From: a virus
Direction: 5' to 3' (one strand)
UHGV virus genome: UHGV-0289908
Length of the DNA: 64,000 bases
A program made the position numbers and the translations under genes. The notes under the pieces were generated by a model. It did no database searches and was not told the origin of the DNA. It saw only the letters and a program-made list of their open reading frames with translations. Shown here in pieces: positions 2,742-53,247 of this stretch. Position 1 is the stretch's first letter. Every line of letters starts with the position of its first letter.

Positions 2742-3479
2742 ATGACTAAAGTGGACAAAGACGAGCTCACCTCTCTCGTTGAAGAAGGATTGACTCAAAA
2801 AGAGATAGCGGAACGACTCGGAGTTTCCCCCATGACAGTTTTAAGGACATGCAAGAAATTGGGATTAAAAACACAAGGAAACAAGAAAAAGATAAAGGAT
2901 TATACTGGGATTCGTTCGGGACGATTGGTCTATCTGCAACCAAGTGGAGTGACACAAGATAGAAGAACATTATGGAAGTGCCAATGCGACTGCGGGAATA
3001 TTGTTTACAAAACAGGGGCAGGGATTGGCTACCATCAATCATGCGGTGAATGTGTTGTTCCTCGAAACAGTCAACCTCTTTATAAAATATGGAGAGGAAT
3101 GCACGCAAGATGTAAATATAGCGGAGTAAAAAGCTACCATAGATATGGAGGGAGAGGAATAAAGGTTTGTTCAGAATGGGAGGATTACGAGACTTTCAAA
3201 ACATGGGCTCTAACAAACGGATATGAAGAAGGGTTAAGCATAGACCGAATTGACAATGGCAAAGGATACCAAGCAGATAACTGTCGTTGGGTGTCACAAA
3301 AACAACAAATGCGGAACACAGATAGCAATAGAAACATTACATACAATGACCAAACAAAATGTTTGATAGAATGGGCAGAAGTGAAAGGAATATCGCCAGA
3401 CACTTTGGCTAAAAGGTTGGATAAATATAATTGGAGCATTGAAAAAGCTCTCAATACTCCAGTAAGAGGAAAGAGGTAG
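2742..3479 (+). CDS. Freestanding HNH-type homing endonuclease with an N-terminal HTH
   Basis: 'YKIWRGMHARC...GGRGIKVCSEWE...GLSIDRIDNGKGYQADNCRWVSQKQQ' resembles the phage HNH family. Lies between nrdF and gmk. Confidence 0.55.
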   Translation: MTKVDKDELTSLVEEGLTQKEIAERLGVSPMTVLRTCKKLGLKTQGNKKKIKDYTGIRSGRLVYLQPSGVTQDRRTLWKCQCDCGNIVYKTGAGIGYHQSCGECVVPRNSQPLYKIWRGMHARCKYSGVKSYHRYGGRGIKVCSEWEDYETFKTWALTNGYEEGLSIDRIDNGKGYQADNCRWVSQKQQMRNTDSNRNITYNDQTKCLIEWAEVKGISPDTLAKRLDKYNWSIEKALNTPVRGKR

Positions 3480-4525: not shown

Positions 4526-5137
4526 ATGAAGTGGTATGAAGCATACTATATTATTGAATGTGGAGGAATGGTTCGTCGTAAAGGATGGGAAGAAGGTGTG
4601 TTCATTCGAATGGCAGATGACCTAGACAATGATGATGACCAATACTTAATTAACGAAAAGCAAGAATACATAGAGCTCACGGAAGAGGAGTTACGGGCAA
4701 CAGATTGGGTCGAATACGACCCCTATGTTCGCTCAGATGAAGAGTTAAACGACAAGGAATATTTAAACCTTGTCAAAGAAAGATGTAGAGCCAAATTAAA
4801 CTATCAACAGAGAATCTTAAAGAATTGTCTTCAAATGTTCGCAGAGAAGCAGAAGGCTCTCCCTGTGTGGGAACTAGGTGCTCAGCAAAAGTACTTCATT
4901 GTTTATTCATACTTAAATGGGCAATATCGAGTAGAAGCAACATGCAAGGAGTATTATCCAAACATTGTTTATTTCTCAAATAAGCAGGCATGCGAGGTGG
5001 CAATTCGTACATATCGCCCCATGCTTGATATTGCTCGCATGTTGGATTGTCAGTTCAACTTACTATGTATACAAGAGTACGACCGAGAAACATTAGTTAA
5101 AATCAATAAAATGATAAGTCGTGTTAAAATATTATAA
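4526..5137 (+). CDS. Hypothetical protein
   Basis: ORF with RBS 'AGGGGGGATGATGGG'. No recognisable motif. Confidence 0.4.
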   Translation: MKWYEAYYIIECGGMVRRKGWEEGVFIRMADDLDNDDDQYLINEKQEYIELTEEELRATDWVEYDPYVRSDEELNDKEYLNLVKERCRAKLNYQQRILKNCLQMFAEKQKALPVWELGAQQKYFIVYSYLNGQYRVEATCKEYYPNIVYFSNKQACEVAIRTYRPMLDIARMLDCQFNLLCIQEYDRETLVKINKMISRVKIL

Positions 5138-5173
5138 AACATATTGACAAGATATGACGGAACATGATATAAT
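5126..5173 (+). promoter_or_regulatory. Promoter module (UP element, TTGACA 5144-5149, 18-bp spacer, TGaTATAAT 5165-5173). The UP element overlaps the 3' end of the upstream ORF.
   Basis: Consensus match. Confidence 0.55.
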
Positions 5174-6969: not shown

Positions 6970-7281
6970 ATGTATTCGATTGGAACTAGAGTAGAAATTG
7001 TGGACGTAAATGACAACTATCGTATGAGAGGATTGGAGATAGGAGACCGAGGATGGGTAATACTCGAACCACGTGAACATGAAGTGGCGGTTATGTTTGA
7101 CAAAGAACTCTCATATGGATTAAGTTTTTCTCCTCATCGAAGCGACAATGCCCAAATTGCACAGATGATTGATAATGGAATTATGATGGATGGAGAACTT
7201 ATTCTGAACAGAAGCATTCATGTAGACTTTAATTGTATTAAGCCATGTAGGTTAGCACAGGCAATTCAATGGATAGAATAG
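6970..7281 (+). CDS. Tandem paralogue 2 of 5 (C-terminal IQWIE)
   Basis: Shares 'HEVAVMFDKE' with paralogue 4. The stop is embedded in 'TGGATAAAATAGGAGG'. Confidence 0.6.
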   Translation: MYSIGTRVEIVDVNDNYRMRGLEIGDRGWVILEPREHEVAVMFDKELSYGLSFSPHRSDNAQIAQMIDNGIMMDGELILNRSIHVDFNCIKPCRLAQAIQWIE

Positions 7282-7291
7282 GAGGAATAAT

Positions 7292-7606
7292 ATGAATGAA
7301 TCAATGGAGTTGAAAGTTGGAGACATTGTTGAATTCGTGAGTCGAGCAGATGATTCATGTGGAGAATGTGGAGGAGATAGAGGTAAGGTTGTCCGTGTTA
7401 GATATGATGGAATATGGGTATATCATCTAACAATGCCATGCGACACCGCATGGTCAATATATGACAGAGATGACTTTATAGCGGAGTGTCTTATCTCAGA
7501 AGGGGTCATTACAAATCACGAAGCACGTCAAAATCGTTTTTGGTGGTATCCTTTTAGTGCAGTAACAAAAGTGGCAAATGCTTCAAAAATTGAATGGATA
7601 GAATAG
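7292..7606 (+). CDS. Tandem paralogue 3 of 5 (C-terminal IEWIE), Cys-rich
   Basis: 'CGECGG', 'RFWWYP'. Confidence 0.6.
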   Translation: MNESMELKVGDIVEFVSRADDSCGECGGDRGKVVRVRYDGIWVYHLTMPCDTAWSIYDRDDFIAECLISEGVITNHEARQNRFWWYPFSAVTKVANASKIEWIE

Positions 7607-7616
7607 GAGGGGTAAC

Positions 7617-7928
7617 ATGTCATTTTCTAGCTTTAATCGAGGAGAACGAGTAAGAATAATCGCCCCCCAAAGAACGAAAGCCTTAGCCGTGGGGGATAAG
7701 GGATATATCATCAGAAATTCCAGTTTTGGACACTACGATGAAGTGGCGGTTATGTTTGACAAAGAATTCAGAGAGGGATTAAATTTCGTTGCGGGAGAAA
7801 ACAGTGATGAAGAGATAATCCGTCGTGGACTTGTGTATGCAGGTGAACATGTACAGAATCGTTCAGCATGGGTTCGAGTAGAAGACCTTGAACTCTGCTC
7901 AGACCACGAGATTCAGTGGATAGAATAG
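7617..7928 (+). CDS. Tandem paralogue 4 of 5 (C-terminal IQWIE)
   Basis: 'DEVAVMFDKEF'. Confidence 0.6.
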   Translation: MSFSSFNRGERVRIIAPQRTKALAVGDKGYIIRNSSFGHYDEVAVMFDKEFREGLNFVAGENSDEEIIRRGLVYAGEHVQNRSAWVRVEDLELCSDHEIQWIE

Positions 7929-7938
7929 GAGGTGCTAT

Positions 7939-8271
7939 ATGGTTGACAGTATGAATGGATTGTGCATAGGTGATAGAGTTATCATTTCTGGCAGTGGAGG
8001 AGATTTTGGAACTCCTTGTTCATGGATGGGGGAACGTGGAAGAATAATCTTTTTCGACACCGATGACGACTCTGCGGTGGTATTTTTTGACTCAAATATT
8101 GGACGCTGGGGATTGGTTGAATTAGATGAACCATACACCAGAGTCGAGCGTATTCAAGGTGGGCTAACAATGGGATGGTTTACTGAAAACGAACTAAAAA
8201 AAGAAAGATGTTCTTGGATAAGTGTTGAAAACCTATCACTGTTCTGCACACCAATTGAATGGATTGACTAA
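7939..8271 (+). CDS. Tandem paralogue 5 of 5 (C-terminal IEWID)
   Basis: N-terminal 'GDRVIISGSGG' beta-strand-like motif shared with the others. Confidence 0.55.
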   Translation: MVDSMNGLCIGDRVIISGSGGDFGTPCSWMGERGRIIFFDTDDDSAVVFFDSNIGRWGLVELDEPYTRVERIQGGLTMGWFTENELKKERCSWISVENLSLFCTPIEWID

Positions 8272-9756: not shown

Positions 9757-10188
9757 ATGGGAATTGTAATACCGTTGATAGGGTTGTTGTTTATCTTGTG
9801 TTTCTCGTGTGCTTATGTGGGATATGACGTAGCAGATAAGAGAGCAAAACAAGCAGAACAACGAGCCTTGGAGTACAGCTACAAGCTAGTAGAGTATCAG
9901 AGTAAACTTGCAACAGAAAGAATGCGTTACGAAGCGGAACGAAAGCAACGAACACAAGATATCGAAGACTATAATAAGCTAGTGAACGAATACAATAAGC
10001 TAACTCGTTTATATCGCAATATGAACAATAAACAAGGAGGAGACGCAAATGTGCAATCCCCTGTTATTAAGGAAATGTTGCGTTTTGCAATGACACAGGC
10101 TCATCCAGACGCAGGAAAGGAGAAGACTCCAGACCGCTTTATTAAGTACCGAGAAGAGTATGAAAGACTTTACAAAGGGAGACGATAA
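9757..10188 (+). CDS. Membrane-anchored J-domain-like protein (N-terminal TM, coiled coil, C-terminal HPD motif)
   Basis: 'GIVIPLIGLLFILCF' TM segment. Central KR/E-rich coiled coil. 'AMTQAHPDAGKEKTPDRFIKYREEYERLY' resembles DnaJ helix II-III including HPD. Confidence 0.4.
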   Translation: MGIVIPLIGLLFILCFSCAYVGYDVADKRAKQAEQRALEYSYKLVEYQSKLATERMRYEAERKQRTQDIEDYNKLVNEYNKLTRLYRNMNNKQGGDANVQSPVIKEMLRFAMTQAHPDAGKEKTPDRFIKYREEYERLYKGRR

Positions 10189-10349
10189 CATGAGAAAGAA
10201 TACGGTTTTACAATGCAATGATTGCAAGTTTGGTAAGTAGAATGAATTCCGACGAATTAATTTATGCACCAAATCCTCTGCATTTGTGCTAAGAATATTT
10301 GATAAAGATGGCAACTGTACAATGAAAGTGTCAAGAGAGGAGAAATAAA

Positions 10350-10556
10350 ATGGGAGTATTTTCATTAATACATAAAGACACAAGAGAATGTCTTATCACG
10401 TCTACTCGTTTAGAAGACATAGACGCATACTTAACGAAACAACAAAAAGAACAAGGGAAGTATTATATTGAGGTTCGAGACACCCGAGGGCACTTATGTA
10501 ATGCAACCTACAAAAGCAGCAAAGGAACTTGGATTCTTGTTCCTTTATCTGAATAG
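10350..10556 (+). CDS. Hypothetical protein (68 aa)
   Basis: RBS 'AGAGAGGAGAAATAAAATG'. Confidence 0.4.
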   Translation: MGVFSLIHKDTRECLITSTRLEDIDAYLTKQQKEQGKYYIEVRDTRGHLCNATYKSSKGTWILVPLSE

Positions 10557-10560
10557 TCGT

Positions 10561-10609
10561 CTAAATATTATAAAATGTGTTGACAAAAGGTGACAAACTA
10601 TGATATAAT
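10561..10609 (+). promoter_or_regulatory. Promoter module (TTGACA 10580-10585, TGaTATAAT 10601-10609)
   Basis: Consensus. Confidence 0.6.
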
Positions 10610-10639
10610 TAGCGTATGTTAAAGAGAGGGAGGTAAAAC

Positions 10640-11248
10640 ATGACAAACGAAGAATTGGTAGCAAGATTTCAAAATGGAGAAGATGTATTCGAAGAGTTAT
10701 ATCAAAATAATAAAGGTTTTATTCACAAAAAGGCATTTGAATATAGTCGGAAGTCTTTTCTGGAGAAAGAGGACTTGATAAACTGTTTCATGTTTGTTCT
10801 GTATAAGTGTGCTCATGCTTATGACATTAATGCTGATAACAAGTTTGTCACATTTTTTGGGACATCAATGCTACGTTACTACATGAAGGCGAAAGATAGA
10901 AGTGAATACAAAAACGTATTTATTAAAACTGACTCGTTAAACAAGCAGGTTCAGTCATCTAACATGGGGTCTTACATGGAAAGGATTGATATAATTCCAT
11001 CTCATCACGAGGAGTTTTCATATCTCCGTGAGGTGGAGAATGCTTGTGTGAAAACTTTATCCAACATCATGGGGAAGAATCAAGTTAACATGGTCATGCA
11101 CTATCTTTGTGGGAATTATTCTCAAAGAGAATTAAGTAAAATGTATAATGTTTCTCCACAAGCTGTATCGGGGAATGTTAACCGTGCAAGAGTTATTTTG
11201 AAACGAGAATTGCCCAAACAGGGATTTGAATTAGATTTTAGGAGGTAA
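10640..11248 (+). CDS. Phage sigma-70-family sigma factor (regions 2 and 4)
   Basis: Region 4 HTH 'YSQRELSKMYNVSPQAVSGNVNRARVILKREL'. Region-2-like N-terminus. 202 aa. Confidence 0.6.
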   Translation: MTNEELVARFQNGEDVFEELYQNNKGFIHKKAFEYSRKSFLEKEDLINCFMFVLYKCAHAYDINADNKFVTFFGTSMLRYYMKAKDRSEYKNVFIKTDSLNKQVQSSNMGSYMERIDIIPSHHEEFSYLREVENACVKTLSNIMGKNQVNMVMHYLCGNYSQRELSKMYNVSPQAVSGNVNRARVILKRELPKQGFELDFRR

Positions 11249-11252
11249 TGAT

Positions 11253-11723
11253 ATGATTAAAGTAGTATATGGAGATTTAATGCAAGCAACAGAGGATATT
11301 ATTGTTCATCAAGTAAACTGTAAAGGGGTTATGGGCTCTGGAGTAGCGAAACAAATCAAGGCTAATTTCCCCGAAGTTTTTAATGAGTACCGAGGACATG
11401 CTCAATCTCATGATAGTGATGAGCTATTGGGGACTGCCCAGTTCGTGTTCTCACCAAGTAAGAACAAGATTGTTGCTAACGTATTTGGACAAGACTCTTT
11501 TGGAGCAAGTCGTCGTCGCACATTTGAATCTGCTCTAATTTGGGGATTAATCAAGGTAAAAGAGTTTGCAGAGGACAATAATATGTCGGTTGCCATGCCG
11601 TACAATATTGGCTGTGCATTAGGTGGAGGAGATTGGGATACTGTATACGAAGGTATTCAAGCGGTATTCAGCGACTTTGACCGAGATGTTGTACTTTATC
11701 AATTTGAAGAACCTTCTTGCTAA
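11253..11723 (+). CDS. Macro-domain (ADP-ribose-binding / ADP-ribosyl-hydrolase-like) protein
   Basis: 'IIVHQVNCKGVMGSGVAKQI' matches the macro-domain N..N....G.G(V/I)A motif. 'GCALGGGDW' is the distal glycine loop. Start overlaps the sigma-factor stop. Confidence 0.65.
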   Translation: MIKVVYGDLMQATEDIIVHQVNCKGVMGSGVAKQIKANFPEVFNEYRGHAQSHDSDELLGTAQFVFSPSKNKIVANVFGQDSFGASRRRTFESALIWGLIKVKEFAEDNNMSVAMPYNIGCALGGGDWDTVYEGIQAVFSDFDRDVVLYQFEEPSC

Positions 11724-11768
11724 AATATTATAAAATATGTTGACAAATATTGTCGATAATGGTATAAT
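11720..11768 (+). promoter_or_regulatory. Promoter module (TTGACA 11740-11745, 17-bp spacer, TGgTATAAT). Overlaps the macro-gene stop.
   Basis: First 31 bp identical to the module at 27281. Confidence 0.6.
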
Positions 11769-11804
11769 AAAGGAGTACTGGAAATACGAGAGGAGAAATG
11801 AAGA

Positions 11805-12146
11805 ATGACAAAAGTAGTACAATTACCAATTATTGTAACACATAATGTTAAAGTAGTAGAATACGAGAACATTTCTTATGTTCGTACACGAGACATTGCA
11901 GACGCATTGGGAATTAAACAACCGTTTGAGTTCACAAGCGACATTCGTAAGGTATTAGGAGGACATACGGTACTGAGTGGAGAAGACACAAAAGAGTTTC
12001 GAGGAGGAGCTGACAATTCACGCACCCCATATGTAAAAGTGTCGGATATGATTGAGTTCTTAGAACGAGGTGTCCTAAACCATAAGACCAATGGAACTCG
12101 CAAAAACGTTATTACTGTATTACAGGCTTACATGAATACATATTAG
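11805..12146 (+). CDS. Hypothetical protein
   Basis: RBS 'GAGGAGAAATGAAGAATG'. Confidence 0.4.
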   Translation: MTKVVQLPIIVTHNVKVVEYENISYVRTRDIADALGIKQPFEFTSDIRKVLGGHTVLSGEDTKEFRGGADNSRTPYVKVSDMIEFLERGVLNHKTNGTRKNVITVLQAYMNTY

Positions 12147-12154
12147 TTAGGATT

Positions 12155-12367
12155 TTGATACTTATGAAACAACTTTACGCATTGACTGTAAATGGTCATA
12201 GATATGGTCGAGGGAATATGTCCTACATGTTGGAGCTGATTCAAGAATGGACAGAGACAAGAGACATGTATGGAGCAGAAGAGGTTGTGTTTAAAATTGA
12301 AAAGACCCATCCAAAAGAACCTGCTCCTTTGGAATGTTCTTATCGAGGATTTTTAAATAATAGATAA
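12155..12367 (+). CDS. Hypothetical protein (70 aa)
   Basis: ORF only. Confidence 0.3.
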   Translation: MILMKQLYALTVNGHRYGRGNMSYMLELIQEWTETRDMYGAEEVVFKIEKTHPKEPAPLECSYRGFLNNR

Positions 12368-12737
12368 GGAGGTTGATTATTTTGATATGGGGACTGATTG
12401 ATGGATTGATTAGTGCCTTTATCCTCTCGCTATTTGGATTCGATGATATTGTTGTCGGATGTCTATATGAGTGGTTTGGAGTAACGGTGTCGTCCAATAG
12501 TTACTATATGCTGTTTGCTATTTTAGGAGCATTATCAACATTGGACTAGGAAGAGACTTAATATATGAAGAGCGAGCAATTAAACGCATTGAGATTTTTA
12601 AATATCGACAAGGCTAAGATTGATATATTAGGAGGGCAGGATATGGACTTAAAAAACGTGAGGTATCAATCGAAAAACTGTTTGTATTTAAACAATAAAA
12701 TTAATATTTTATAGTGCTATTTAAAAGGAGGAATTAC

Positions 12738-14326: not shown

Positions 14327-14941
14327 ATGAACATTAAAACATTAGCAGTTGCAGGGATTGAGCAGTCCATGAAAGGGATGCGTAATCCGATGGATTCTTG
14401 GCACTTGCAGGATACCACAGGAGACATAATTGGAGAAAAGGATTTGAACCTCGCTCAACGTTTATTAAAAGCAGGAGCAGAGCACGCAAAATTCATGAGA
14501 CAAATTCATGTGTGGGTTGACATGGACATGCCACGTTATTGGTGGAGTGAGTTTGATACATACCACTATAATACGAAAAACAGTTGTTCAACAATGCACA
14601 AACTGTTAAACAAGAAAACACCAATTCGTTTAGAGCAGTTTTATTATGAACCACAAGATGAAGAATTCATGATGATTATTGTTGATAAGTTAAATGAAAT
14701 TCGAGAAGAATGGAATAACGCTCAAGGAACAAGCGATAAAAACTTGTGTCTTAAAAGAGCAAAACAGTTGTTACCAGAAGGGTTTTTACAGTTGCGAACG
14801 GTATCAACCAATTATGCTGAAATTCGCAATATTTACTTCCAACGTAAAAACCACCGTTTAAAAGAAGAATGGCAAGATACTTTTGTGGAATGGGTTAAGA
14901 CCTTACCATATGCGGAAGAGTTGATTATGTATGAAGGATAA
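14327..14941 (+). CDS. Hypothetical protein, possibly nucleotide-metabolism related given its position beside folD. Not assignable by eye.
   Basis: 204 aa. Preceded by a GGAGA/TCTCC-type hairpin in the leader. Confidence 0.4.
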   Translation: MNIKTLAVAGIEQSMKGMRNPMDSWHLQDTTGDIIGEKDLNLAQRLLKAGAEHAKFMRQIHVWVDMDMPRYWWSEFDTYHYNTKNSCSTMHKLLNKKTPIRLEQFYYEPQDEEFMMIIVDKLNEIREEWNNAQGTSDKNLCLKRAKQLLPEGFLQLRTVSTNYAEIRNIYFQRKNHRLKEEWQDTFVEWVKTLPYAEELIMYEG

Positions 14942-15572
14942 TCCGAGAAAGTGTTCTGTAGAAGGATGTGAAACACAGGCAAAACATAATTGCTTTGATG
15001 GCAAGCCATACTGTGGAAAACACCTTCATCACATGTATAGACATGGAGAAATAAGAACAATACATCGAAGAAGTCCAAATAACTATACAACTAATGGCAA
15101 CATTACTACAGTTGATTTATATGGGAATCGTGGGGAATTAAAAGGGCAAGCCATCATCGACACAGAAGACAAAGAAATTGTATCAAAACATAAATGGGGC
15201 TACACTCCCGATGGATATGTGAAAAGTTCAGCACAAAGACTACTATTGCACCGATTAGTGATGAATTGCACGGACAAGTATTTACAGGTAGACCATATTA
15301 ACGGAAATCCATTAGACAATCGCAAGGCGAATTTGCGATTAGTCACAAATCAACAAAATCAGTTTAATTCAAAAAACACTGGTTCGGGAGACAACTCTCG
15401 AAAAGGAGTTTCATTTCGCAAAGACCGAAACAAATGGAGAGCTTATATCACGCTAAACGGAAAACAAATAGCCCTCGGTTCGTTTGACACAGAAGCGGAA
15501 GCAATAGAGGCTAGAATCCAAGCAGAAGAAAAGTACTATCGAGAATACAGGAGAGGGGAATATTATGAGTAA
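14931..15572 (+). CDS. HNH homing endonuclease with a C-terminal AP2-like DNA-binding domain
   Basis: N-terminal Zn knuckle 'CSVEGCETQAKHNCFDGKPYCGKH'. 'VDHINGNPLDNRKANLRLVTNQQN' HNH core. 'GVSFRKDRNKWRAYITLNGKQIALGSFDTEAEAIEAR' AP2. Confidence 0.7.
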   Translation: MKDNPRKCSVEGCETQAKHNCFDGKPYCGKHLHHMYRHGEIRTIHRRSPNNYTTNGNITTVDLYGNRGELKGQAIIDTEDKEIVSKHKWGYTPDGYVKSSAQRLLLHRLVMNCTDKYLQVDHINGNPLDNRKANLRLVTNQQNQFNSKNTGSGDNSRKGVSFRKDRNKWRAYITLNGKQIALGSFDTEAEAIEARIQAEEKYYREYRRGEYYE

Positions 15573-20364: not shown

Positions 20365-20585
20365 GTAAATAAAATCAGAAGTTAACAGACATTTAAGGAG
20401 TGGTAAAATGGATTTTAATAAGTGTCATATTGAACTACTTGTAAGAGCATTAGACCATTATAAGTGGTATCAAGTGATTTCAGATGAAGAAAAAGAAGAG
20501 TGTGTCAGAATAAAACGCATTCTTCAAAAGTTATATAAACAAATTGATGGCAAACAAAATTAGAATTTTAAAGGAGACGATATTA

Positions 20586-21287
20586 ATGGCTATTAACTTA
20601 ACTAAAAATCAAGGAATTAACTTAACAAAAGATGTTGAAGGGGTTGAAGAAGCATTAAAGACTATTAAATTAGGATGTGGATGGCAAGCGTCTGATTCGG
20701 GCTATGTAACTATTACACGAACAGTAACGAAAACTCGTCGCACTGGAGGATTCCTTGGATTTGGTGGAACGATTGAAACTTACGAAGAGCCAGCAACTGA
20801 GGAAGTGTATGTAGGAAACATTGATGTAGACGCTTCGGTATTTGCCTTCAAGAATGGAACATTAGTTGGAGAGTGTACATTCCGCAATCAAACAATGAAG
20901 AATCGAGTAGGTAAAACTGTTGCTAAATCAAGCGGAGATGACACAGTGGGGTCTCGTGGTAAGAACAAGAGCGACAATGAAACAGTTACCATTAACCTTG
21001 AGAATGCTGTTGGATTTGCAGATACATTATACTTAGCATTAAACATCTTCCAAGCGAAGAGCAAGGGTCAGCACTTCAACATGATTAATAATTCTTATGT
21101 GCGAGTGTATGATGACAAAGGTATTGAGTTGGCATACTTCAACTTAGCAGAAGACTATGACAAGAAAACAGGAATTGTGGTCGGTAAATTAGTTGAACGA
21201 AATGGGAAGTTTGAGTTTGTTGCATTAGGTGACGGAGTGATTGTTAGCGACTTACGTGACTTAGCTTCAAAATCAAAACGATACTAA
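20586..21287 (+). CDS. TerD-domain protein, second copy
   Basis: Starts 'MAINLTKNQGINLTK' like the first TerD. RBS 'AAAGGAGACGATATTAATG'. The ORF-track start at 20544 is probably too far upstream. Confidence 0.6.
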   Translation: MAINLTKNQGINLTKDVEGVEEALKTIKLGCGWQASDSGYVTITRTVTKTRRTGGFLGFGGTIETYEEPATEEVYVGNIDVDASVFAFKNGTLVGECTFRNQTMKNRVGKTVAKSSGDDTVGSRGKNKSDNETVTINLENAVGFADTLYLALNIFQAKSKGQHFNMINNSYVRVYDDKGIELAYFNLAEDYDKKTGIVVGKLVERNGKFEFVALGDGVIVSDLRDLASKSKRY

Positions 21288-21373: not shown

Positions 21374-23944
21374 ATGAAGAATATTAATGGATTAACAAAC
21401 GCAGAAGTGGAATCGCAACGCATGCTATTTGGAGATAATAAGATTGCAGAAGCAGAACCAAAGAAGTTTTGGACAGAATGGTTGGCAAACTTTGAAGACC
21501 CAATGTTAAAATTATTAGTGGGAATTACAGTGTTAATGGCGGTAATCGCTGCCTTTGGATTCACAGAATGGTTTGAAGTCATTGGTATCTTAATCTCTGT
21601 GACAATCGTAACACTTATTTCAACAAAGACTGCAATGGTTTCAGATGGAGAATACCGCAAGTTAAAAGAAGAGAACTCTCATGAGACTTGTAAGGTATGC
21701 CGTAATGGACAAATTGAAATCATTGACACTAACGACTTGGTGGTTGGAGACTTTGTTTTAGTTCAATCGGGAGAGAAGATTCATGCAGATGGATTCTTAT
21801 ATGATGGGAACATTAAGGTAGACAACTCAGCGTTAAACGGTGAGTCAGATGAAGTTAAAAAGATTCCAACAGACTTCTATGACTTTGCAAATGGTGAAAT
21901 GACAGACTCTCACATGATGTTACGTGGAGCTTTAGTTGCTGACGGGGAAGGTGTTATGAAAGTAGCCAAGGTTGGAGCAAACACTATGATGGGACGTATG
22001 GCAGAAGAGATGACAGAAGAAGAGGTTGACTCTCCATTAAAAGTTAAGTTAACACACTTAGCAGAGCAAATCTCTAAATTCGGTTATATCGGAGCAGTAG
22101 TTATTGGATTAGCTATCTTAGGTAACTCAATCTTAAGTAACGGGCTACAGTCTTGGTTGGCACAACCATTCGCATTAATGGCTAAAGACGTGTTAAATGC
22201 CTTATTAGTATCAGTAACAATCGTAGTTATGGCAGTACCAGAGGGATTACCTTTAATGATTGCAATTGTATTAATGCAAAACACTTCAAAGATGTTGCAA
22301 CACAATGTATTAGTGCGTAAGGCAGTAGGTATTGAAACAGCGGGGTCATTAAACATCTTATTCTCAGATAAAACAGGAACTATCACTAAAGGTCAGTTAG
22401 AAGTAGTAAACTTCATTGACAAGGACGGAAACCAGTTTGATTCAATCACTGGATTAGACGAAGGTATGCAGAAGTTAGTTGCCACATCATTAAAGATTAA
22501 CAACTCGGCTATGATTGTAGACGGTGAAATCACAGGTGGGAACATGACAGACCGCGCTTTATTACAATATGTTAAAGATATTGAGCATGAAGATTTAAAG
22601 GTAGTAAAAGTGGAAACATTCAACTCTGCTAAGAAGTTCATGGCAACTCAATGTGAGACAGCAATGGGTCGTACATTAACGCTATACAAAGGTGCAGTTG
22701 AACGAGTATTAGACAAATGTATCAATATTACAGATGAAGAACGCAACAAAATCAACACTATTGTTGACGAAATGGCTAACAATGCAATCCGTGTACTTGC
22801 TATCAGTTATGCTCATGGAGAGTTAGTAGCAGGTGAATTATCACCAGAGATGAGCTTATTAGGGGTAATTGGTATCCGTGACGATGTTCGTCCAGAAGCT
22901 AAAACAGCCATTGCAGAAGTACAAAATGCAGGTGTTCAAGTAGTCATGATTACTGGAGACCGCAAAGAAACAGCAGTAGCAATCGCAAAAGACGCAGGAT
23001 TAATTACCAAAGACACAGATGTGGTATTAACATCAAGTGAATTACAGGACTTATCAGATGAAGAAGTAAAAGCAATCATTCCAAACTTAAAGGTAGTTGC
23101 TCGTGCATTGCCAACAGACAAGTCACGTATGGTTCGTTTATCACAGGAGCTAGGACTTGTAGCAGGGATGACAGGTGACGGAACTAACGACAGTCCTGCC
23201 TTAAAACGAGCAGACGTAGGGTTTGCCATGGGGTCTGGAACAGATGTAGCGAAAGAAGCAGGAGACATCATCATCTTAGATGACAACTTCAAGTCAATCG
23301 CAGACTCGGTGTTATATGGTCGTACTATCTATAACAATATCTTAAAGTTTATCAAGTTCCAATTAACAATCAACGTAGTAGCAGTATTTATTTGTGCAGT
23401 GTGCCCATTCTTCGGTATCCAAGAGCCATTAAACATTATCCAGTTGCTAATCCTCAATTTAGTAATGGACAGCTTAGGGGCTATGGCATTAGGTGGAGAA
23501 CCTGCATTAAAAGAGTACATGAATGAGAAGCCAAAGTCTCGTACACAATCAATCGTAGATAAAGCTATGATGATTCAAGTAGGTGCTATGGGAGCATTCA
23601 TGGCAGTATTAAGTTTATTATTCTTATTTGTTCCTATGTTCAAAGACATGTTTGGTCAAGCACATTTAACAGGATACTTCGCACTATTCATGTTGATGTC
23701 TGTATTCAATGGATTCAATGTGCGTAGCATGGATTCAAATGTATTCAAGGGATTAGATGAAAACAAAACATTCGCTAAGGTTATGGTTGCTATCGTTGCC
23801 ATCTTAGTAGTGTTAACACTCATTGGAGGAGAATTCTTATCAGTAACCCCAATGAACTTAGTGCAATGGGTTGTGGTGTCAGTAATGGCAGTAACAGTAA
23901 TTCCATTCGGAAGTTTCTTAAAAGGATTAATTTCGTCAAAATAA
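21374..23944 (+). CDS. P-type cation-transporting ATPase (type IIA, Ca2+-ATPase-like)
   Basis: 'DKTGTIT' phosphorylation site, 'MITGDRKETA', 'GDGTNDSPALKRADVGFAMG', an N-terminal cation-ATPase-N segment and about 8-10 TM helices. Confidence 0.85.
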   Translation: MKNINGLTNAEVESQRMLFGDNKIAEAEPKKFWTEWLANFEDPMLKLLVGITVLMAVIAAFGFTEWFEVIGILISVTIVTLISTKTAMVSDGEYRKLKEENSHETCKVCRNGQIEIIDTNDLVVGDFVLVQSGEKIHADGFLYDGNIKVDNSALNGESDEVKKIPTDFYDFANGEMTDSHMMLRGALVADGEGVMKVAKVGANTMMGRMAEEMTEEEVDSPLKVKLTHLAEQISKFGYIGAVVIGLAILGNSILSNGLQSWLAQPFALMAKDVLNALLVSVTIVVMAVPEGLPLMIAIVLMQNTSKMLQHNVLVRKAVGIETAGSLNILFSDKTGTITKGQLEVVNFIDKDGNQFDSITGLDEGMQKLVATSLKINNSAMIVDGEITGGNMTDRALLQYVKDIEHEDLKVVKVETFNSAKKFMATQCETAMGRTLTLYKGAVERVLDKCINITDEERNKINTIVDEMANNAIRVLAISYAHGELVAGELSPEMSLLGVIGIRDDVRPEAKTAIAEVQNAGVQVVMITGDRKETAVAIAKDAGLITKDTDVVLTSSELQDLSDEEVKAIIPNLKVVARALPTDKSRMVRLSQELGLVAGMTGDGTNDSPALKRADVGFAMGSGTDVAKEAGDIIILDDNFKSIADSVLYGRTIYNNILKFIKFQLTINVVAVFICAVCPFFGIQEPLNIIQLLILNLVMDSLGAMALGGEPALKEYMNEKPKSRTQSIVDKAMMIQVGAMGAFMAVLSLLFLFVPMFKDMFGQAHLTGYFALFMLMSVFNGFNVRSMDSNVFKGLDENKTFAKVMVAIVAILVVLTLIGGEFLSVTPMNLVQWVVVSVMAVTVIPFGSFLKGLISSK

Positions 23945-23985
23945 TATAAAATAGATTGACAACATATGACAATCTATGATATAGT
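23941..23985 (+). promoter_or_regulatory. Promoter module (TTGACA 23956-23961, 18-bp spacer, TGaTATAGT)
   Basis: Consensus. Confidence 0.55.
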
Positions 23986-24097
23986 TTAAATGCACCTAGG
24001 AAATAGTTTTTGACAGTCAGTACCTACCATGGTAGGTATTGGCAATCAAGAACTGATTCAAAAAGAGAGAGTGAGTTCTTAATACTTGTTAGGAGAG

Positions 24098-25543
24098 ATG
24101 AACATGAATTATAACCACAGAAGTTTTATTTGGGATTGTGACGCTTACAAGCTAGGACATATGTGCCAGTACCCAAGCGACACAGAATATGTTTACTCAG
24201 TATTACAATTACGCAGTGACCGATACTTCACTGAGACACCGATTGTTGGGTTACAATACCTAATTAAAGAGTACTTAATGCAACCAATTTTAAAAGGTGA
24301 TGTCGAAGGGCTAATTGCAGAAGCAAAAGCAATGGGAATCTATCACCCAGATACTGAAACAAAGTTGATGGCTTTAGTAGACTTAGGATACTTACCATTA
24401 GAGATTAAGGCATTACCAGAGGGTAGTGTTGTGGGAATGCCAAATGCAGTGTGTACAATTCAAAATACCGTTGCAGGATTCCACTGGGTAGTAGGGTTCG
24501 TAGAAACATTATTGTTAAAATGGTGGTCAGCCTTAGCAACAGGAGCTTGTAGCTTAAAGTATCGTCGCATTGTTGATAAGTACTTTGCAGAAACATCAGA
24601 CAACGACTTCTTACGACCATTCGCTGTTCATGATTTTGGTTCACGTGGGGCAATGACTCCAGAGGGAGCAGCTTTTACAGGAATGGCTCACGCATTAAAC
24701 TTCGATGGTTCTGACACAATCGTATCAGCTCCATTAATTCGCAAGTTCTACAATGCAGAAGGAATGGTAATCTGCTCAGTGCCTGCTAGCGAACACTCTG
24801 TAATGTGTTCATTTGGACGAGAAGATGAAATTAAAGCATTTGAGAACATGTTAGATATTTACCCTACAGGGATTGTTTCAATCGTTTCAGATACATATAA
24901 TTGGTACAATGTTATGGATAACATGACGCTACAACTAAAAGACCGCATTATGGCTCGTGATGGTAAAGTGGTATTTCGACCAGACAGTGGTAATCCATAT
25001 CACATCATTTGTGGCGAGTACACTGATAAGACATTGAGAAAGTATTGTGAAGAAAGCTGTCAAACTCATGGCGGAATCCATATGTTAGATAAAATATTTG
25101 GTCACACAGTCAACTCAAAAGGATACAAAGTATTGGATTCACATGTAGGACTAATCTACGGGGATGGAATGTATTTAGAACGTTTCGAGAAGACGTTAGA
25201 AACATTAAAAGACCTAGGATATAGTGCGGAAAACTTAGTAATTGGGGTAGGTGGAATCTTACGCAATCACACTCGAGATACTTTAGGAGCGGCATTCAAA
25301 GCGACTTGCGTGTGTCGTGATGGCAAATGGATTCCTATTATGAAAGACCCTATCACTGACCAAGGGAAGAAATCATATCAAGGCTTTGTATCCGTCATCA
25401 AAGAAGATGGACAATATAAAACGGTCGAAGGTGGACATCCACAAGACTTATTACAAACAGTGTTTAAGGATGGACAATTAGTAAAAGACTTCACTTGGCA
25501 GGAAGTTAAAGACCGATACAATTCAGAGTTAGGAGACCGATAA
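24098..25543 (+). CDS. nadV: Nicotinamide phosphoribosyltransferase family protein (NAMPT/NadV-like; candidate Namat of the phage NAD+ reconstitution pathway 1)
   Basis: Blocks 'LPLEIKALPEG', 'HDFGSRG', 'NFDGSDT', 'PASEHSV', 'VSDTYN', 'RPDSGNP', 'NSKGYKVL', 'IYGDG', 'DLLQTVFKDGQL' align one-for-one with NAMPT signature blocks. Confidence 0.85.
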   Translation: MNMNYNHRSFIWDCDAYKLGHMCQYPSDTEYVYSVLQLRSDRYFTETPIVGLQYLIKEYLMQPILKGDVEGLIAEAKAMGIYHPDTETKLMALVDLGYLPLEIKALPEGSVVGMPNAVCTIQNTVAGFHWVVGFVETLLLKWWSALATGACSLKYRRIVDKYFAETSDNDFLRPFAVHDFGSRGAMTPEGAAFTGMAHALNFDGSDTIVSAPLIRKFYNAEGMVICSVPASEHSVMCSFGREDEIKAFENMLDIYPTGIVSIVSDTYNWYNVMDNMTLQLKDRIMARDGKVVFRPDSGNPYHIICGEYTDKTLRKYCEESCQTHGGIHMLDKIFGHTVNSKGYKVLDSHVGLIYGDGMYLERFEKTLETLKDLGYSAENLVIGVGGILRNHTRDTLGAAFKATCVCRDGKWIPIMKDPITDQGKKSYQGFVSVIKEDGQYKTVEGGHPQDLLQTVFKDGQLVKDFTWQEVKDRYNSELGDR

Positions 25544-25544
25544 G

Positions 25545-26390
25545 ATGAACCGACAGGATGTAAAACGATTAACAGATGATTTTCGTAGTAATATTTATGT
25601 CAAAACTGTCCATGGCATGACAGTGGTTGATTTAGACCAGTGGGGAGCAGGAGAGTATCGAGTGACCTATGATATTTGTGAAAAGTATGGGAAATACATT
25701 CATTTGTATATTCCATACGCTACAATGAGCACCCTAGAGAAAGCCATTGTGTTTACACGCTTTGCTTATAAGCAAGGGGCAAAACTGCGTACAACAATAG
25801 GGTATGTGGCATATGGACGACAAGAGCGAGAAACTGGATTAGAACCAGAGCTATTCTCTGTAGTCAAAGACATGATTGCACACCTTCACAACGTGCACAT
25901 CATTGACCCTCATAACATTCCTTCTGCCCTTGAGTATAACACAGAGTGGTTTTCTCCTAAAATCAACGATATGTTGCCAAGGGGGTTCTTAATTGTAGCC
26001 CCAGACAAGGGAGCTGACACTCGCAACAAGAAATTAAATCTGCACTCTGACTATGTAATTGAAAAGGTTCGTACAGTAGACGGAGTAAAATCTCGCATTA
26101 TAGAAGATGACACATTCACTGGAGAAGTGGTTAACGACCCTATAGATTTTATTATCTATGACGACATTTGTGATGGAGGTCGCACTTTTGTGAACGTAGC
26201 AGACATTATGAGAGCCAAGTATCCAAACTGCACCATCACGCTATGTGTTGCACATGCTATCCTGCCTTTTGGGACAGACCATTTAAAAGGTAAGATTAAT
26301 AAGATTATCACGTCAAACACATGTTTCCCTGCGGGAACCTATGATGATGGATTCTTAGATGTTTTAAATGCGTTAAATATCTTCTATTAA
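25545..26390 (+). CDS. Ribose-phosphate pyrophosphokinase (PRPP synthetase) homologue; candidate Adps (ADP-ribose pyrophosphate synthetase)
   Basis: 'LIVAPDKGADTR', 'IIYDDICDGGRT' (PRTase-type nucleotide loop), 'CVAHAILPFG'. Starts 1 nt after the NAMPT-like stop, so likely an operon. Confidence 0.75.
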   Translation: MNRQDVKRLTDDFRSNIYVKTVHGMTVVDLDQWGAGEYRVTYDICEKYGKYIHLYIPYATMSTLEKAIVFTRFAYKQGAKLRTTIGYVAYGRQERETGLEPELFSVVKDMIAHLHNVHIIDPHNIPSALEYNTEWFSPKINDMLPRGFLIVAPDKGADTRNKKLNLHSDYVIEKVRTVDGVKSRIIEDDTFTGEVVNDPIDFIIYDDICDGGRTFVNVADIMRAKYPNCTITLCVAHAILPFGTDHLKGKINKIITSNTCFPAGTYDDGFLDVLNALNIFY

Positions 26391-28557: not shown

Positions 28558-29196
28558 ATGAGCAAAACAGGAAAGACCTGTTGTGTGTCAGAATGTGACA
28601 AAAAGCACTATGCAAACGGCTATTGTGAAAAACATTATTGGCAAGTCAGAAGACATGGAAAAGTGGTCTTATGTACACGTAGCAAATTTGACAATAATGA
28701 AATCATCTTAAATGGAGATGAAACAGCAACCATTATAACCTATGATAATCATGGGGTTGCCAATGGTAAAACAATAATTTCTGATTCCTGTGTAGAACAG
28801 GTCAGAGACAAAAAGATTGGGAAACATACTTCGAAAGATTATTATTACATCCTAATTGACGGCAACCGCTATGCACTTCACCGCTATCTAATGAATGCTC
28901 ACCTTTCTAGGCATAAAGTGGTGGTTGACCACATTAACCGAAACCCGAGTGATAACCGACTATCAAATTTAAGAATAACAAACCATTCTGGCAACAACTG
29001 TAACAGAGGTTTAATGTCAAATAATTCACTAGGTATTAAAAATATTGGATTAACCAAGTACGGAACATATCGAGTGCAGATTTCTTTGAAAGAGAAGAAG
29101 CACAGTAAAACATTTAAGACACTTGAAGAAGCAATTAAATGGAGAAATGAAACTTTGGTTGCTCTACAAGGAGATTTTGCAAACATACAAGATTAA
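28558..29196 (+). CDS. HNH homing endonuclease with an AP2-like domain (paralogue of 14931..15572)
   Basis: 'CCVSECDKKHYANGYCEKH' Zn knuckle, 'VVDHINRNPSDNRLSNLRITNHSGN', 'GTYRVQISLKEKKHSKTFKTLEEAIKWR'. Confidence 0.7.
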   Translation: MSKTGKTCCVSECDKKHYANGYCEKHYWQVRRHGKVVLCTRSKFDNNEIILNGDETATIITYDNHGVANGKTIISDSCVEQVRDKKIGKHTSKDYYYILIDGNRYALHRYLMNAHLSRHKVVVDHINRNPSDNRLSNLRITNHSGNNCNRGLMSNNSLGIKNIGLTKYGTYRVQISLKEKKHSKTFKTLEEAIKWRNETLVALQGDFANIQD

Positions 29197-32888: not shown

Positions 32889-33662
32889 ATGACAAATAGA
32901 AGTAAAAAACATGAATACATGAACCAGACCTTCACTACAAATGAGGGGTACAATATCAAGATTGTAGATTATGTTAATAGTCGCAATGTGACAGTTGAAT
33001 TTGACAATGGATATAGAACCAATGCTCAACTTGGCTCAATTTTAAAGGGGAGAGTCTCATTCCCCTTTCACCCCTCTGTATATGGGGTAGGTTGCTTGGG
33101 GGTTGGAGAGTATCTGGCAAGTCATAAAAGAAAACACACAAAGACCTACAAAGTATGGCATAGCATGATGGCACGCTGTTATAGCAACTCTTGCTTGGCG
33201 AGCAGGAGCACTTATATGGATTGCTCTGTATACGAGGGATGGCACAATTTCCAAAACTTTGCCAAATGGTATGAAGACAACTATTATGAGATAGAGGGGG
33301 AGCAAATGCACTTGGACAAGGATATTCTTGTAAAGGGCAATAAGGTTTATTCCCCCGACACCTGTGTATTTGTTCCAGAAACCATTAACGGACTGTTTGT
33401 CAAAAGCAATGCCATTAGAGGGGCATTGCCAATAGGTGTCAGCTATCATAAAAAAGACAGGATGTATTACTCTCGATGTAATAATCAGCTATTGGGGAAG
33501 ACTATCACCATTGGGACTTTTACCACCCCCGAGGGTGCGTTCGAAGCCTATAAAGAATACAAAGAGAAGTATATTAAAGAAGTGGCAGAGAAATATAGGG
33601 GCAATATTCCTTCTCATCTGTATGACGCACTAATCCAGTATGAAGTCGAAGTTACTGATTAA
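32889..33662 (+). CDS. Freestanding HNH-family homing endonuclease (paralogue of 2742..3479)
   Basis: 'YKVWHSMMARC...YEGWHNFQNF..W' conserved with the 2742 protein. Lies between the helicase and the primase. Confidence 0.5.
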   Translation: MTNRSKKHEYMNQTFTTNEGYNIKIVDYVNSRNVTVEFDNGYRTNAQLGSILKGRVSFPFHPSVYGVGCLGVGEYLASHKRKHTKTYKVWHSMMARCYSNSCLASRSTYMDCSVYEGWHNFQNFAKWYEDNYYEIEGEQMHLDKDILVKGNKVYSPDTCVFVPETINGLFVKSNAIRGALPIGVSYHKKDRMYYSRCNNQLLGKTITIGTFTTPEGAFEAYKEYKEKYIKEVAEKYRGNIPSHLYDALIQYEVEVTD

Positions 33663-36693: not shown

Positions 36694-37317
36694 ATGACAC
36701 CACAGGAAGAATACGAAAAGATATTAAAGATACGTAACAAGGAAATAAGTTTTGACGAAGCAGTCAAGAGTTACAAAGGAATGCTAGTTAAAAAGTCAAA
36801 ATCCTACCATATAGCAGGGCAAGATAAAGACGACCTTTATTCTTGCTCAATGTACTCCTTATACAAGGCGGTCAACACCTTTGATGGTAGCGGTAGTTTT
36901 ATAAAATACTTGGGATATATTATCGACAACGATTTTAAAAGCATGATTCGAAAGTCTTGGGGAGAAAGAAATGGTGATATTCACTATACTAATTGTGCTC
37001 GTCTAAACAAGCCTGTTGCAGCACATGTTGATGGGAACTTTGTTGAAATGGGGGAGCTGCTCCCAACCAATCTTTCATTAGATTGTTTGGATTACAACCT
37101 GCTAATTCCAATTGTTAAAGAAGCGATGATTGCCCTACCCCCAGAGGTTCAGAAATTACTCCAACTACATCTTTTTGAAGAATGCAATCAACAAGAAATT
37201 GCTAAAGAGTTTGGAGTGTTGCAGAGTACAATTTCAAGACGCATTCAACGGTCTCTTCTCTTACTACAAAAAGAGCTAGAGAAGCTAGACATCACCAACC
37301 CATATCCAAAACAATAA
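36694..37317 (+). CDS. Second phage sigma-70-family sigma factor
   Basis: Region-4 HTH 'NQQEIAKEFGVLQSTISRRIQRSLLLLQKEL'. Region-2-like 'DDLYSCSMYSLYKAVNTFD'. Confidence 0.6.
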   Translation: MTPQEEYEKILKIRNKEISFDEAVKSYKGMLVKKSKSYHIAGQDKDDLYSCSMYSLYKAVNTFDGSGSFIKYLGYIIDNDFKSMIRKSWGERNGDIHYTNCARLNKPVAAHVDGNFVEMGELLPTNLSLDCLDYNLLIPIVKEAMIALPPEVQKLLQLHLFEECNQQEIAKEFGVLQSTISRRIQRSLLLLQKELEKLDITNPYPKQ

Positions 37318-44810: not shown

Positions 44811-45980
44811 ATGGCATTAGTTATTAAACGAGATGGAAATTTAACAGGGTTTAACAAGAATAAGATTAAGGTGGCAATTTTAAAAGCAATGGAGTATGGT
44901 AGCGGCATTGTCAATAAAGAGATTGCCGAAACTGTTGCTCAAGAAGCTGAAAATACATACAATGTTGATGGAAAGATGACAGTAAGCATTGCAGAGATTG
45001 AAGCATTCGTGTTTCAACAATTAGTCCAACACGGACATGAATTAACCGCACGTGCCTATGAAGGATACCGTTCTGTTCAAGCCTTCAAACGTGAGACAAA
45101 CACAACGGATGAATCAATCTTGGGGCTAATTCGTGGAACAAATGAAGAAGCTATCAATGAGAACTCAAACAAAAATGCTTACATTGCTTCTACTCAACGA
45201 GACCTTGTAGCAGGAGAGGTTTCAAAAGACCTTGCACGTAGACACTTAATTCCTGCTCATATTGTGCAAGCTCATGATGAAGGTGTCATTCACTATCACG
45301 ACCTTGATTATGCGTTACAACAAATTCCAAACTGTAACTTAGTTAACTTAAAAGATATGTTGGATAATGGCACTGTGATTAATGGAAAACGTGTTGACTC
45401 TCCAAATTCATTCTTAACTGCTTGTACTATTGCTACTCAAATTATGGCACAGGTTGCAAGTGGACAATTCGGAGGACAAACAAGCTCATTATCGCACTTA
45501 GCTCCTTACGTTCGTAAATCAAGAGAGCGTTACTATGACTTATTAAAGGACACAATCAACTCTATTGACGAGTTAAATAACACAGTTGATAAGTTAGTTA
45601 AGAAGGAGATTGCTTCTGGAGTACAGACAATCCAATATCAAATACAGACGCTCGCAACATCTAATGGTCAGTCACCTTTCGTTTCTTTATTCATGTATTT
45701 AAACGAAGATGAAGAGTATATCGAAGAGATGGCTTTAATCATTGAAGAAGTATTAAAGCAACGCATCTTAGGGGTGAAGAATGAGCAAGGAGTATACATT
45801 AGTCCTGCATTCCCTAAATTGCTTTACGTTCTTGATGAGAACAATACATACGAAGGTAGCGAATACTACTACTTAACTAAATTAGCAGTTGAATGTGTGT
45901 CTAAACGCATTGTTCCAGACTTCATCAGTGCTAAAAAGATGAAAGAACATTATGAAGGACAAGTGTTCCCTTGTATGGGT
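44811..45980 (+). CDS. nrdD: Anaerobic ribonucleotide reductase NrdD, exon 1 (ATP-cone plus N-terminal catalytic region)
   Basis: 'MALVIKRDGNLTGFNKNKIKVAILKA' ATP-cone. The ORF runs into intron sequence after '...VFPCMG'. Confidence 0.8.
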
Positions 45981-53207: not shown

Positions 53208-53228
53208 TTTGTTTCCCCTTTCAAATTG

Positions 53229-53247
53229 GCAAGAGGTGTATAACACC
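53229..53247. other. Perfect inverted repeat AGAGGTGT-ata-ACACCTCT immediately upstream of the recombinase start
   Basis: Seen in sequence. No adjacent U-tract. Confidence 0.4.

Follow-up and report, generated by a model that had tools for sequence, protein, structure and literature searches.

Defence proteins with a RES domain, termed aRES, phosphorolyse NAD+ to nicotinamide and ADP-ribose-1''-phosphate (ADPR-1''-phosphate), a product which cannot be used by NARP1, the pair of phage enzymes Adps and Namat (Osterman et al., bioRxiv 10.64898/2026.01.28.702374). According to the same preprint, a Poa1p-like macro protein, named Adpp, is encoded in 15% of NARP1 operons, and the purified Adpp of Vibrio phage Gary converts ADPR-1''-phosphate to ADP-ribose (ADPR). 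The three-gene operon defeats aRES, with the loss of any one gene abolishing the anti-defence effect, and the Adpp mutant in its primer table is H24A. Among 20,185 phage genomes, 859 encoded NARP1, with macros counted solely within two genes of NARP1, and the name Bacillus occurs 90 times in Table S2, where rows carry genome taxonomy and which we took to be the list of aRES homologues (bioRxiv 10.64898/2026.01.28.702374). Among other macro-domain enzymes, a catalytic Lys is found in DarG (K80) and TARG1 (K84), while SCO6735 has Gln85 at this position and is inactive as Q85A; the latter enzyme cleaves thymidine-linked ADP-ribosylated DNA (ADPr-DNA) and also acts on protein (PMC9411070). The phage anti-DarT factor AdfM (PhiKZ gp104) has N23 and K78 (PMC13309987). 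A macro-domain gene is also present in the 64-kb stretch of virus genome UHGV-0289908 analysed here, referred to as the window, where it directly follows a sigma-70-family gene on the + strand, the reading direction of the pair, and where both NARP1 genes are encoded 13 kb away.

By analogy with the Gary enzyme, the macro protein of the window is, with moderate confidence, predicted to be an ADPR-1''-phosphate phosphatase of the Adpp kind which extends NARP1 and serves the phage's own NAD-rebuilding enzymes. The features on which this assignment draws are as follows:

10580..10609, + strand: perfect sigma-A-type promoter of host type (TTGACA-N18-TATAAT, TG extended -10), predicted to drive the sigma-macro transcript
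10640..11248, + strand: sigma-70-family gene, 202 amino acids, stop codon TAA at 11246-11248, with predicted sigma2-like and sigma4-like domains
11240..11245, + strand: AGGAGG Shine-Dalgarno sequence of the macro gene within the last codons (3' end) of the sigma gene, 7 nucleotides (nt) ahead of the ATG, read directly from the sequence
11253..11723, + strand: macro-domain gene, 156 amino acids, predicted Adpp/Poa1p-like ADPR-1''-phosphate phosphatase from family, fold, residues, tree and literature
11740..11768, + strand: next perfect sigma-A-type promoter (TTGACA-N17-TATAAT, TG extended -10), 16 nt past the macro stop, at the downstream end of the two-gene unit
23956..23985, + strand: near-consensus sigma-A-type promoter (TTGACA-N18-TATAGT, TG) ahead of the NARP1 pair
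24086..25543, + strand: NAMPT-like gene, predicted Namat (PF04095 at 1.4e-37, NAMPT_N at 6.7e-10, phrog_448 at 7.6e-152)
25545..26390, + strand: Prs-like gene, predicted Adps, starting 1 nt past the Namat stop (phrog_619 at 1.6e-30); a profile seeded from it finds Prs-like genes beside NAMPT in 47 loci

The macro open reading frame (ORF) matches Pfam family PF01661 at 33.9 bits (gathering cut-off 22) and phrog_335 at 1.6e-40, and its AlphaFold2 model, based on an alignment of 60 homologues, adopts a macro fold with a mean predicted local distance difference test (pLDDT) score of 93.9. Comparison of the model with the PDB using Foldseek yielded 220 matches at E<=0.001, the 50 listed being macrodomain proteins without exception. 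Ranks 1-17 are occupied by DarG (Mycobacterium tuberculosis and T. aquaticus), Poa1p, TARG1 and BT1257 with query-normalised TM-scores of 0.73-0.84, the M. tuberculosis DarG macrodomain being the top match, and SCO6735 is placed at rank 36. The MacroD-like alphavirus nsP3 macros appear from rank 18 onwards, with TM-scores of ~0.71 and a root-mean-square deviation of ~4.3 Å, and no YmdB or MacroD entry occurs among the top 50 matches. The modelled fold thereby places the protein in the ALC1-like class (TARG1/DarG/Poa1p/SCO6735) rather than among the MacroD-, PARG- or macroH2A-like proteins, settling the subtype for which the initial annotation had offered MacroD, PARG-like and Af1521-like as candidates. 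A MacroD/YmdB reading, as suggested by the JGI annotation "regulator of RNase III", was rejected on the mismatch in fold class.

The key residues of the macro protein are H19, N22, Q80 within an F-G-Q motif, and the loop G120-C-A-L-G-G-G-D-W128. In the 60-homologue alignment N22, Q80, P116 and W128 are invariant and H19 (>=90%), G25, G28 and G125 nearly so, and the two glycine-rich ADP-ribose loops, G28-S-G30 and G124-G-G126, are both present. An ADP-ribose pocket had been proposed from the letters of the sequence, and the Pfam match, the model and these loops indicate that it is intact. The motif by which it had been described, N..N...G.G.A, holds in its second half (G28-S-G-V-A32); the N..N half is absent, the corresponding segment H19-Q-V-N22-C-K-G25 containing one Asn. 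The GGGD-like loop mentioned alongside it is found as L123-G-G-G-D-W128 (G124-G-G-D127).

These residues were compared across an alignment comprising the window macro, fragments of DarG, Poa1p and SCO6735, PhiKZ gp104, nine Adpp representatives from Table S1 of the preprint (bioRxiv 10.64898/2026.01.28.702374), and T4-like and FelixO1-like macros. H19, N22 and Q80, together with a G-[CA]-x-[LR]-x-G-x-x-W loop, are common to the window macro and all nine Adpp representatives, and H24 of the Gary Adpp (H-Q-C-N-C) aligns with H19 of the window macro (H-Q-V-N-C) and H23 of Poa1p. In DarG (5m3i, 5m31) and the AdfM protein PhiKZ gp104, position 19 is occupied by N or I and position 20 by T, and the motifs are P-T-K, with Lys80, and GNGGL. 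The active-site Asn (DarG N22, AdfM N23) is retained as N22 and, being a class-wide residue, does not discriminate between these groups. In a neighbour-joining tree constructed without bootstrap, the window macro groups with all Adpp sequences, Poa1p and SCO6735, while DarG and AdfM are located across a long branch. The His/Asn/Gln combination was rejected as proof of Adpp function, as T4-like and FelixO1-like macros have it too, though NARP1 does not adjoin them.

The pair of NAMPT and Prs genes to which the initial annotation referred (24086-25543 and 25545-26390) corresponds to NARP1 (Namat and Adps). The association of macro relatives with this pair was assessed in IMG/VR, where a single-sequence scan with the window macro recovered one weak locus; an alignment-based scan was hence used, and its best 80 macro loci were considered with 10-kb flanks where the contig allowed. 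A NAMPT homologue is encoded in 48 of these 80 loci, with an adjoining Prs-like gene in 47 of the 48 when detected with an iterated hidden Markov model (tblastn with the window Adps identified two). In these 48 loci Adps, Namat and the macro gene lie within ~3 kb, directly adjacent (<600 nt) in 45 cases and usually in the order Adps-Namat-macro, with the macro start typically ~20-300 nt from the Namat gene. The macros of the Adps-Namat loci share 36-47% identity with the query, which is as close as any relative outside the query's own clade. Dereplication at 70% macro identity yielded 35 clusters, six with NAMPT adjacent and nine in which NARP1 lies at most 10 kb away. Vibrio phage Quinn, one of the phages in Table S1 of the preprint, encodes a macro homologue between Adps and Namat. 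Operons of this kind may carry other genes too: in Bacillus phage Kirov (L095, 76.8-79.9 kb) two small YorP-like genes occur between Adps and Namat, showing that inserts besides the macro recur in NARP1 operons.

In the window, the 13 kb between the macro gene and NARP1 contain many genes and several promoters. A macro homologue at E<=1e-18 is carried by 25 distinct Bacillus/Geobacillus phages, at least 16 of which are also among the top 60 NAMPT matches, with the two loci 20-40 kb apart; PBC2, Tsamsa, Kirov, FADO, PJN02 and vB_BcoS-136 are examples. The split layout of macro and NARP1 is thus common in this phage group. That it represents the usual state of NARP1-AP in large phages of Firmicutes, with the Adpp-type phosphatase an independently mobile cassette working in trans, whose Gln-type site might also strip ADP-ribose from DNA or protein in a two-purpose counter-defence, is put forward tentatively, as a rather doubtful extension of the data.

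Under the favoured assignment, the host RNA polymerase would transcribe the sigma and macro genes from the promoter at 10580, presumably early in infection, and the macro protein would be translated from its own strong Shine-Dalgarno sequence. Phosphorolysis of the host NAD+ by aRES would yield nicotinamide and ADPR-1''-phosphate, the latter not usable by Adps. The macro protein would bind ADPR-1''-phosphate in its canonical pocket (G28-S-G30 and G124-G-G126) and remove the 1''-phosphate, for which His19 would be needed. The released ADPR would be pyrophosphorylated by Adps, transcribed from the host-type promoter of NARP1, and Namat would then join the Adps product to nicotinamide, rebuilding NAD+. 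As it is encoded 13 kb from NARP1, the phosphatase would act in trans. The suggestion, made from the sequence, that the macro protein feeds ADPR into the reconstitution pathway agrees with the published action of the Gary Adpp (bioRxiv 10.64898/2026.01.28.702374), the activity here being predicted by analogy. The promoters suggest that the sigma-macro and NARP1 units are both expressed early. The grounds found in the window and its relatives are the fold, the family, the conserved residues, the presence of NARP1, the genomic association in relatives and the promoters; the phosphatase activity and the anti-aRES effect are carried over from a homologue with ~31% identity, and the window macro may be presumed to share them.

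Several observations weigh against this assignment. At 13 kb from NARP1 the macro gene falls outside the operational definition of Adpp, which places it within two genes of NARP1, and 26 of the 35 dereplicated macro clusters are without NARP1 within 10 kb. The His/Asn/Gln residues are also present in T4-like macros, whose surroundings, examined over 6.5 kb, contain no NARP1 genes, so this signature marks the whole phrog_335 family rather than NARP1 helpers in particular. The identity to the Gary Adpp is ~31% at 44 bits, compared with 48 bits to M. tuberculosis DarG, and SCO6735, which has the same His/Asn/Gln residues, is a DNA and protein de-ADP-ribosylase (PMC9411070). The co-occurrence in Bacillus phages derives from related, large genomes and does not represent phylogenetically independent events. 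On balance the macro gene is an unlinked new member of a known anti-defence family and reveals no new mechanism.

The first alternative is that the macro protein is a DNA de-ADP-ribosylase directed against DarT2-type toxins, resembling DarG, AdfM or SCO6735 and clearing thymidine-linked ADP-ribose from the single-stranded phage DNA to allow replication. The DarG macrodomain of M. tuberculosis is the nearest solved structure by sequence (E 3.3e-12) as well as the top Foldseek match, an anti-DarT macrodomain is known from a phage in AdfM (PhiKZ gp104; PMC13309987), and SCO6735 cleaves thymidine-linked ADPr-DNA with equivalents of the His, Asn and Gln residues, the Q85A mutant being inactive (PMC9411070). 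The catalytic Lys of DarG (K80) and AdfM (K78) is, however, replaced in the window macro by Gln80, which is invariant in the 60 homologues, the DarG-type N-T-V-N and GNGGL motifs are absent from the protein, and the tree places it apart from DarG and AdfM. It would also be left unexplained why close relatives are found repeatedly within Adps-Namat operons, and this alternative is unlikely. The reversal of host ADP-ribosyltransferase defences, one of the roles envisaged in the initial annotation, is accordingly a less likely one given the missing DarG/AdfM Lys, but retains some plausibility from the Gln-type SCO6735, which does cleave thymidine-linked ADPr-DNA.

A slightly less probable alternative has the macro protein acting independently of NARP1 on another ADP-ribose conjugate, such as protein or RNA mono-ADP-ribosylated by host defence transferases, O-acetyl-ADPR, or Appr-1''-p from RNA repair. 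Homologues are found in 1,322 phage records, including the T4-like phages, where the 6.5-kb region inspected about the macro lacked NARP1 genes, and promiscuity is frequent in this enzyme class, SCO6735 being active on both DNA and protein (PMC9411070). The sister-clade loci (L005-L008) moreover encode RtcB and an RNA ligase no more than 6 kb from the macro gene, the RtcB gene of L006 carrying an intein plus an HNH insertion. Against this, the best-matching folds are ALC1-like and the MacroD-like nsP3 macros align worse, and no ADP-ribosyltransferase, Tpt1 or RtcB was detected among the window ORFs scanned, several ORFs having been left unscanned. A link to RNA repair as the source of Appr-1''-p was set aside, as neither RtcB nor an RNA ligase was found among the scanned ORFs of the window, and is kept solely within this minor alternative.

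The arrangement of the macro gene behind a sigma factor gene had led to the proposal that the two form one functional unit. The macro ORF had been described as starting 5 nt after the sigma stop, and its ATG does begin at the fifth base, with four nt (TGAT) in between. Together with the ribosome-binding site inside the upstream ORF, this gap gives the layout expected of translational coupling, and no terminator-like site was found between the promoters at 10580-10609 and 11740-11768. The sigma and macro genes are likely co-transcribed. Translation of the macro gene need not depend on that of the sigma gene, since it has a strong Shine-Dalgarno sequence of its own. Such tight spacing is ordinary in the window genome, where the gaps at same-strand junctions are <=4 nt at 8 of 62 and <=15 nt at 25 of 62.

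The upstream product had been taken to be a sigma-70-family protein, an assignment that is supported by several comparisons. The ORF matches the PHROGs family phrog_351, "RNA polymerase sigma factor", at 2.1e-14, the Pfam evidence by itself being weak (Sigma70_r2 at 14.3 bits with a cut-off of 24; a YlxM-type helix-turn-helix at 2e-4). A profile of nine homologues matches Staphylococcus aureus SigB (8x6g) over regions 2 and 4 at 4e-5, and also WhiG (region 4) and SigF (region 2). The AlphaFold2 model (pLDDT 74) comprises helical domains at residues 1-87 (sigma2-like) and 129-190 (sigma4-like) joined by a disordered linker, and its top 50 Foldseek matches in the PDB are all sigma-70-family proteins. 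Profile and model together support the product of 10640-11248 as a two-domain sigma-70-family protein, with both sigma2 and sigma4 represented. A second sigma-70-family gene, at 36694-37317 (+), matches phrog_351 at 4.5e-21, is 22% identical to the sigma at 10640 and is located 14 nt upstream of the gene for a 1371-residue DNA polymerase; the phage thus encodes at least two sigma factors.

The sigma-macro order recurs in close relatives. The macro gene is preceded by a sigma homologue, at a distance of 11 nt, in the sister clade represented by P0020 (L005-L008), and at 16 nt in the P0123 clade (L098), so that the adjacency is kept in three related clades despite divergence of the sigma to 39-59% identity. 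Beyond these, a sigma homologue is absent from the flanks of the macro gene in all 80 IMG/VR loci and from the macro neighbourhoods of Geobacillus phage E3 and Bacillus phage Nate. In the syntenic relative L096, with neighbouring genes 53-93% identical, the sigma gene is followed by the same promoter and the same 113-residue gene, the macro ORF being cleanly missing, and behind P0128, a more distant homologue of the sigma, comes an unrelated gene for a protein of 264 amino acids. When L096 (4545-4700) is compared with the window (11190-11810), a similarity to the 3' end of the macro gene is seen over ~15 nt past the sigma stop of L096; it could be a scar left by a deletion, but is suggestive at most and is not relied upon here. 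Compared with its L005 counterpart, the window macro has 88% identity in protein and 80% in nucleotide sequence, whereas the figures are 39% for the sigma and 35-58% for the other neighbours, and the downstream 113-residue gene has been relocated elsewhere in L005. The contrast between the macro and its flanking genes indicates mosaicism in L005-L008, and the sigma and macro genes do not co-evolve, as the macro is 88% identical between clades in which the sigma is 39% identical. Such a pattern would be expected of an accessory gene which is mobile or under strong selection and occupies a permissive slot, rather than of a co-evolving partner, and the adjacency, confined to this phage group, is incidental gene order. 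A functional pairing, in which the macro protein would for example de-ADP-ribosylate RNA polymerase or the sigma factor, with translational coupling setting the ratio of the two products, draws on the 4-nt gap, the Shine-Dalgarno sequence inside the sigma gene, the shared promoter and the adjacency in three clades, but is largely refuted by the 80 loci without sigma, by L096 with its sigma and no macro, by P0128, by the unequal divergence of the two genes and by the ordinariness of the spacing, and is very improbable. In the Adpp-type assignment, the sigma factor would simply be a neighbour of the macro protein, not a partner.

Eight perfect promoters of the form TTGACA-N16-19-TATAAT occur in the window, starting at 5144, 10580, 11740, 14222, 16713, 27300, 41470 and 44369; all are on the + strand and have the TG extension, with 0.14 expected by chance. 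Several are preceded by an A/T-rich motif, AAAATATTATAAAAyrTG, which is also kept in the relatives L096 and L098, and motif and promoter together resemble a longer consensus for early promoters. A large phage infecting a low-GC Gram-positive bacterium is indicated alike by the promoters, by the AGGAGG sites and by the closest homologues; the window itself has a GC content of 35-39%. The identical macro protein is present on metagenomic contigs of ~154 kb. A megablast search of positions 10000-12500 against 50,697 phage records returned zero matches, and hence there is no close cultured relative at the nucleotide level among these records.

Several other genes were observed in the window. Four consecutive paralogous genes at 6970-8271 (+), coding for proteins of 103-110 amino acids, are separated by 10 nt and share 23-40% identity; the C-terminal sequence of each is I-(Q/E)-W-I-(E/D), with no Pfam or PHROG match for any of them, and runs of ORFs of 83-114 codons occupy the corresponding position in L096 and L098. 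The N-terminal 62 residues of the product of 4526-5137 (+) show a sub-threshold Pfam match to Tad2-like (Thoeris anti-defence 2) proteins (21.5 bits, cut-off 25), with no PHROG match; if real, this would be a third NAD/ADPR-related counter-defence gene in the phage. The region that borders the NARP1 promoter on its upstream side encodes a TerD-domain protein (20544-21287, +) and then an 856-residue P-type cation-transporting ATPase (21374-23944), both unusual phage cargo. The anaerobic ribonucleotide reductase NrdD is encoded in two ORFs, 44811-45986 and 46856-47908 (+), split by a GIY-YIG homing endonuclease gene (46142-46819), and HNH endonuclease genes (2742-3479, 14931-15572, 28558-29196 and 32889-33662) lie beside ribonucleotide reductase, FolD, Sak4-like and helicase genes. 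At a switch of coding strand, an integrase gene (52167-53246, -) is located beside an endolysin gene (51106-52107, -), an arrangement that suggests a possibly temperate lifestyle even at a size of ~154 kb.

If the Adpp-type assignment is true, the phage holds a full Adpp-Adps-Namat route against both hydrolytic NADases and the phosphorolytic aRES. Searches restricted to operons would undercount NARP1-AP, which matters for estimates of aRES resistance and for host-range prediction in Bacillus-like hosts, and should the split arrangement prove usual, the published 15% of NARP1 with a phosphatase would be a substantial underestimate.

Of the described systems, the window macro most resembles Adpp (Vibrio phage Gary KNV71_gp137). 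Both are single-domain proteins of ~155 amino acids with a Poa1p-like macro fold, they share the H-Q-x-N-C, G-Q and G-C-x-L-x-G-G-D-W motifs, including the mutated His (H24 in Gary, H19 here), and Adps and Namat are encoded in the same genome in both cases. The window macro differs in being only ~31% identical to the tested enzyme, in having its gene 13 kb away from NARP1, downstream of a sigma factor gene and in a promoter unit distinct from that of NARP1, and in coming from a phage of Firmicute type instead of one of Vibrio or Pseudomonas, Bacillus phages being absent from Table S1 of the preprint. Poa1p of Saccharomyces cerevisiae (PDB 6LFQ, 6LFR) has the same fold (Foldseek E ~1e-11, TM-score 0.84), a catalytic-site His23 equivalent to His19 of the window macro, and glycine-rich phosphate loops in common with it. 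The yeast protein is, however, ~22% identical, has Ser/Thr at the position of Gln80 and Ser30 at that of Val26, and has its role in clearing a by-product of tRNA splicing rather than in counter-defence by a phage. The Streptomyces coelicolor protein SCO6735 (PDB 5E3B), the Gln-type member of the ALC1-like class, has His, Asn, Gln and GCGLAGGxW at equivalent positions, but is 27% identical and is a cellular enzyme acting on thymidine-linked ADPr-DNA and ADP-ribosylated protein. The DarG macrodomain (PDB 5M3I, 5M3E) and AdfM have the fold, the V-N-C-x-G-V-M-G-x-G segment and Asn22 in common with the window macro, but differ in having a catalytic Lys in place of Gln80, N-T in place of H-Q at 19-20 and GNGGL in place of ALGGG, and in their separate tree branch. 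Taken as a rule, His19 with Gln80 would denote the Adpp/SCO6735 type and Asn/Ile19 with Lys80 the DarG/AdfM type, separating two kinds of phage macros that present annotations list without distinction as "phosphatase", "RNase III regulator" or "macro domain protein".

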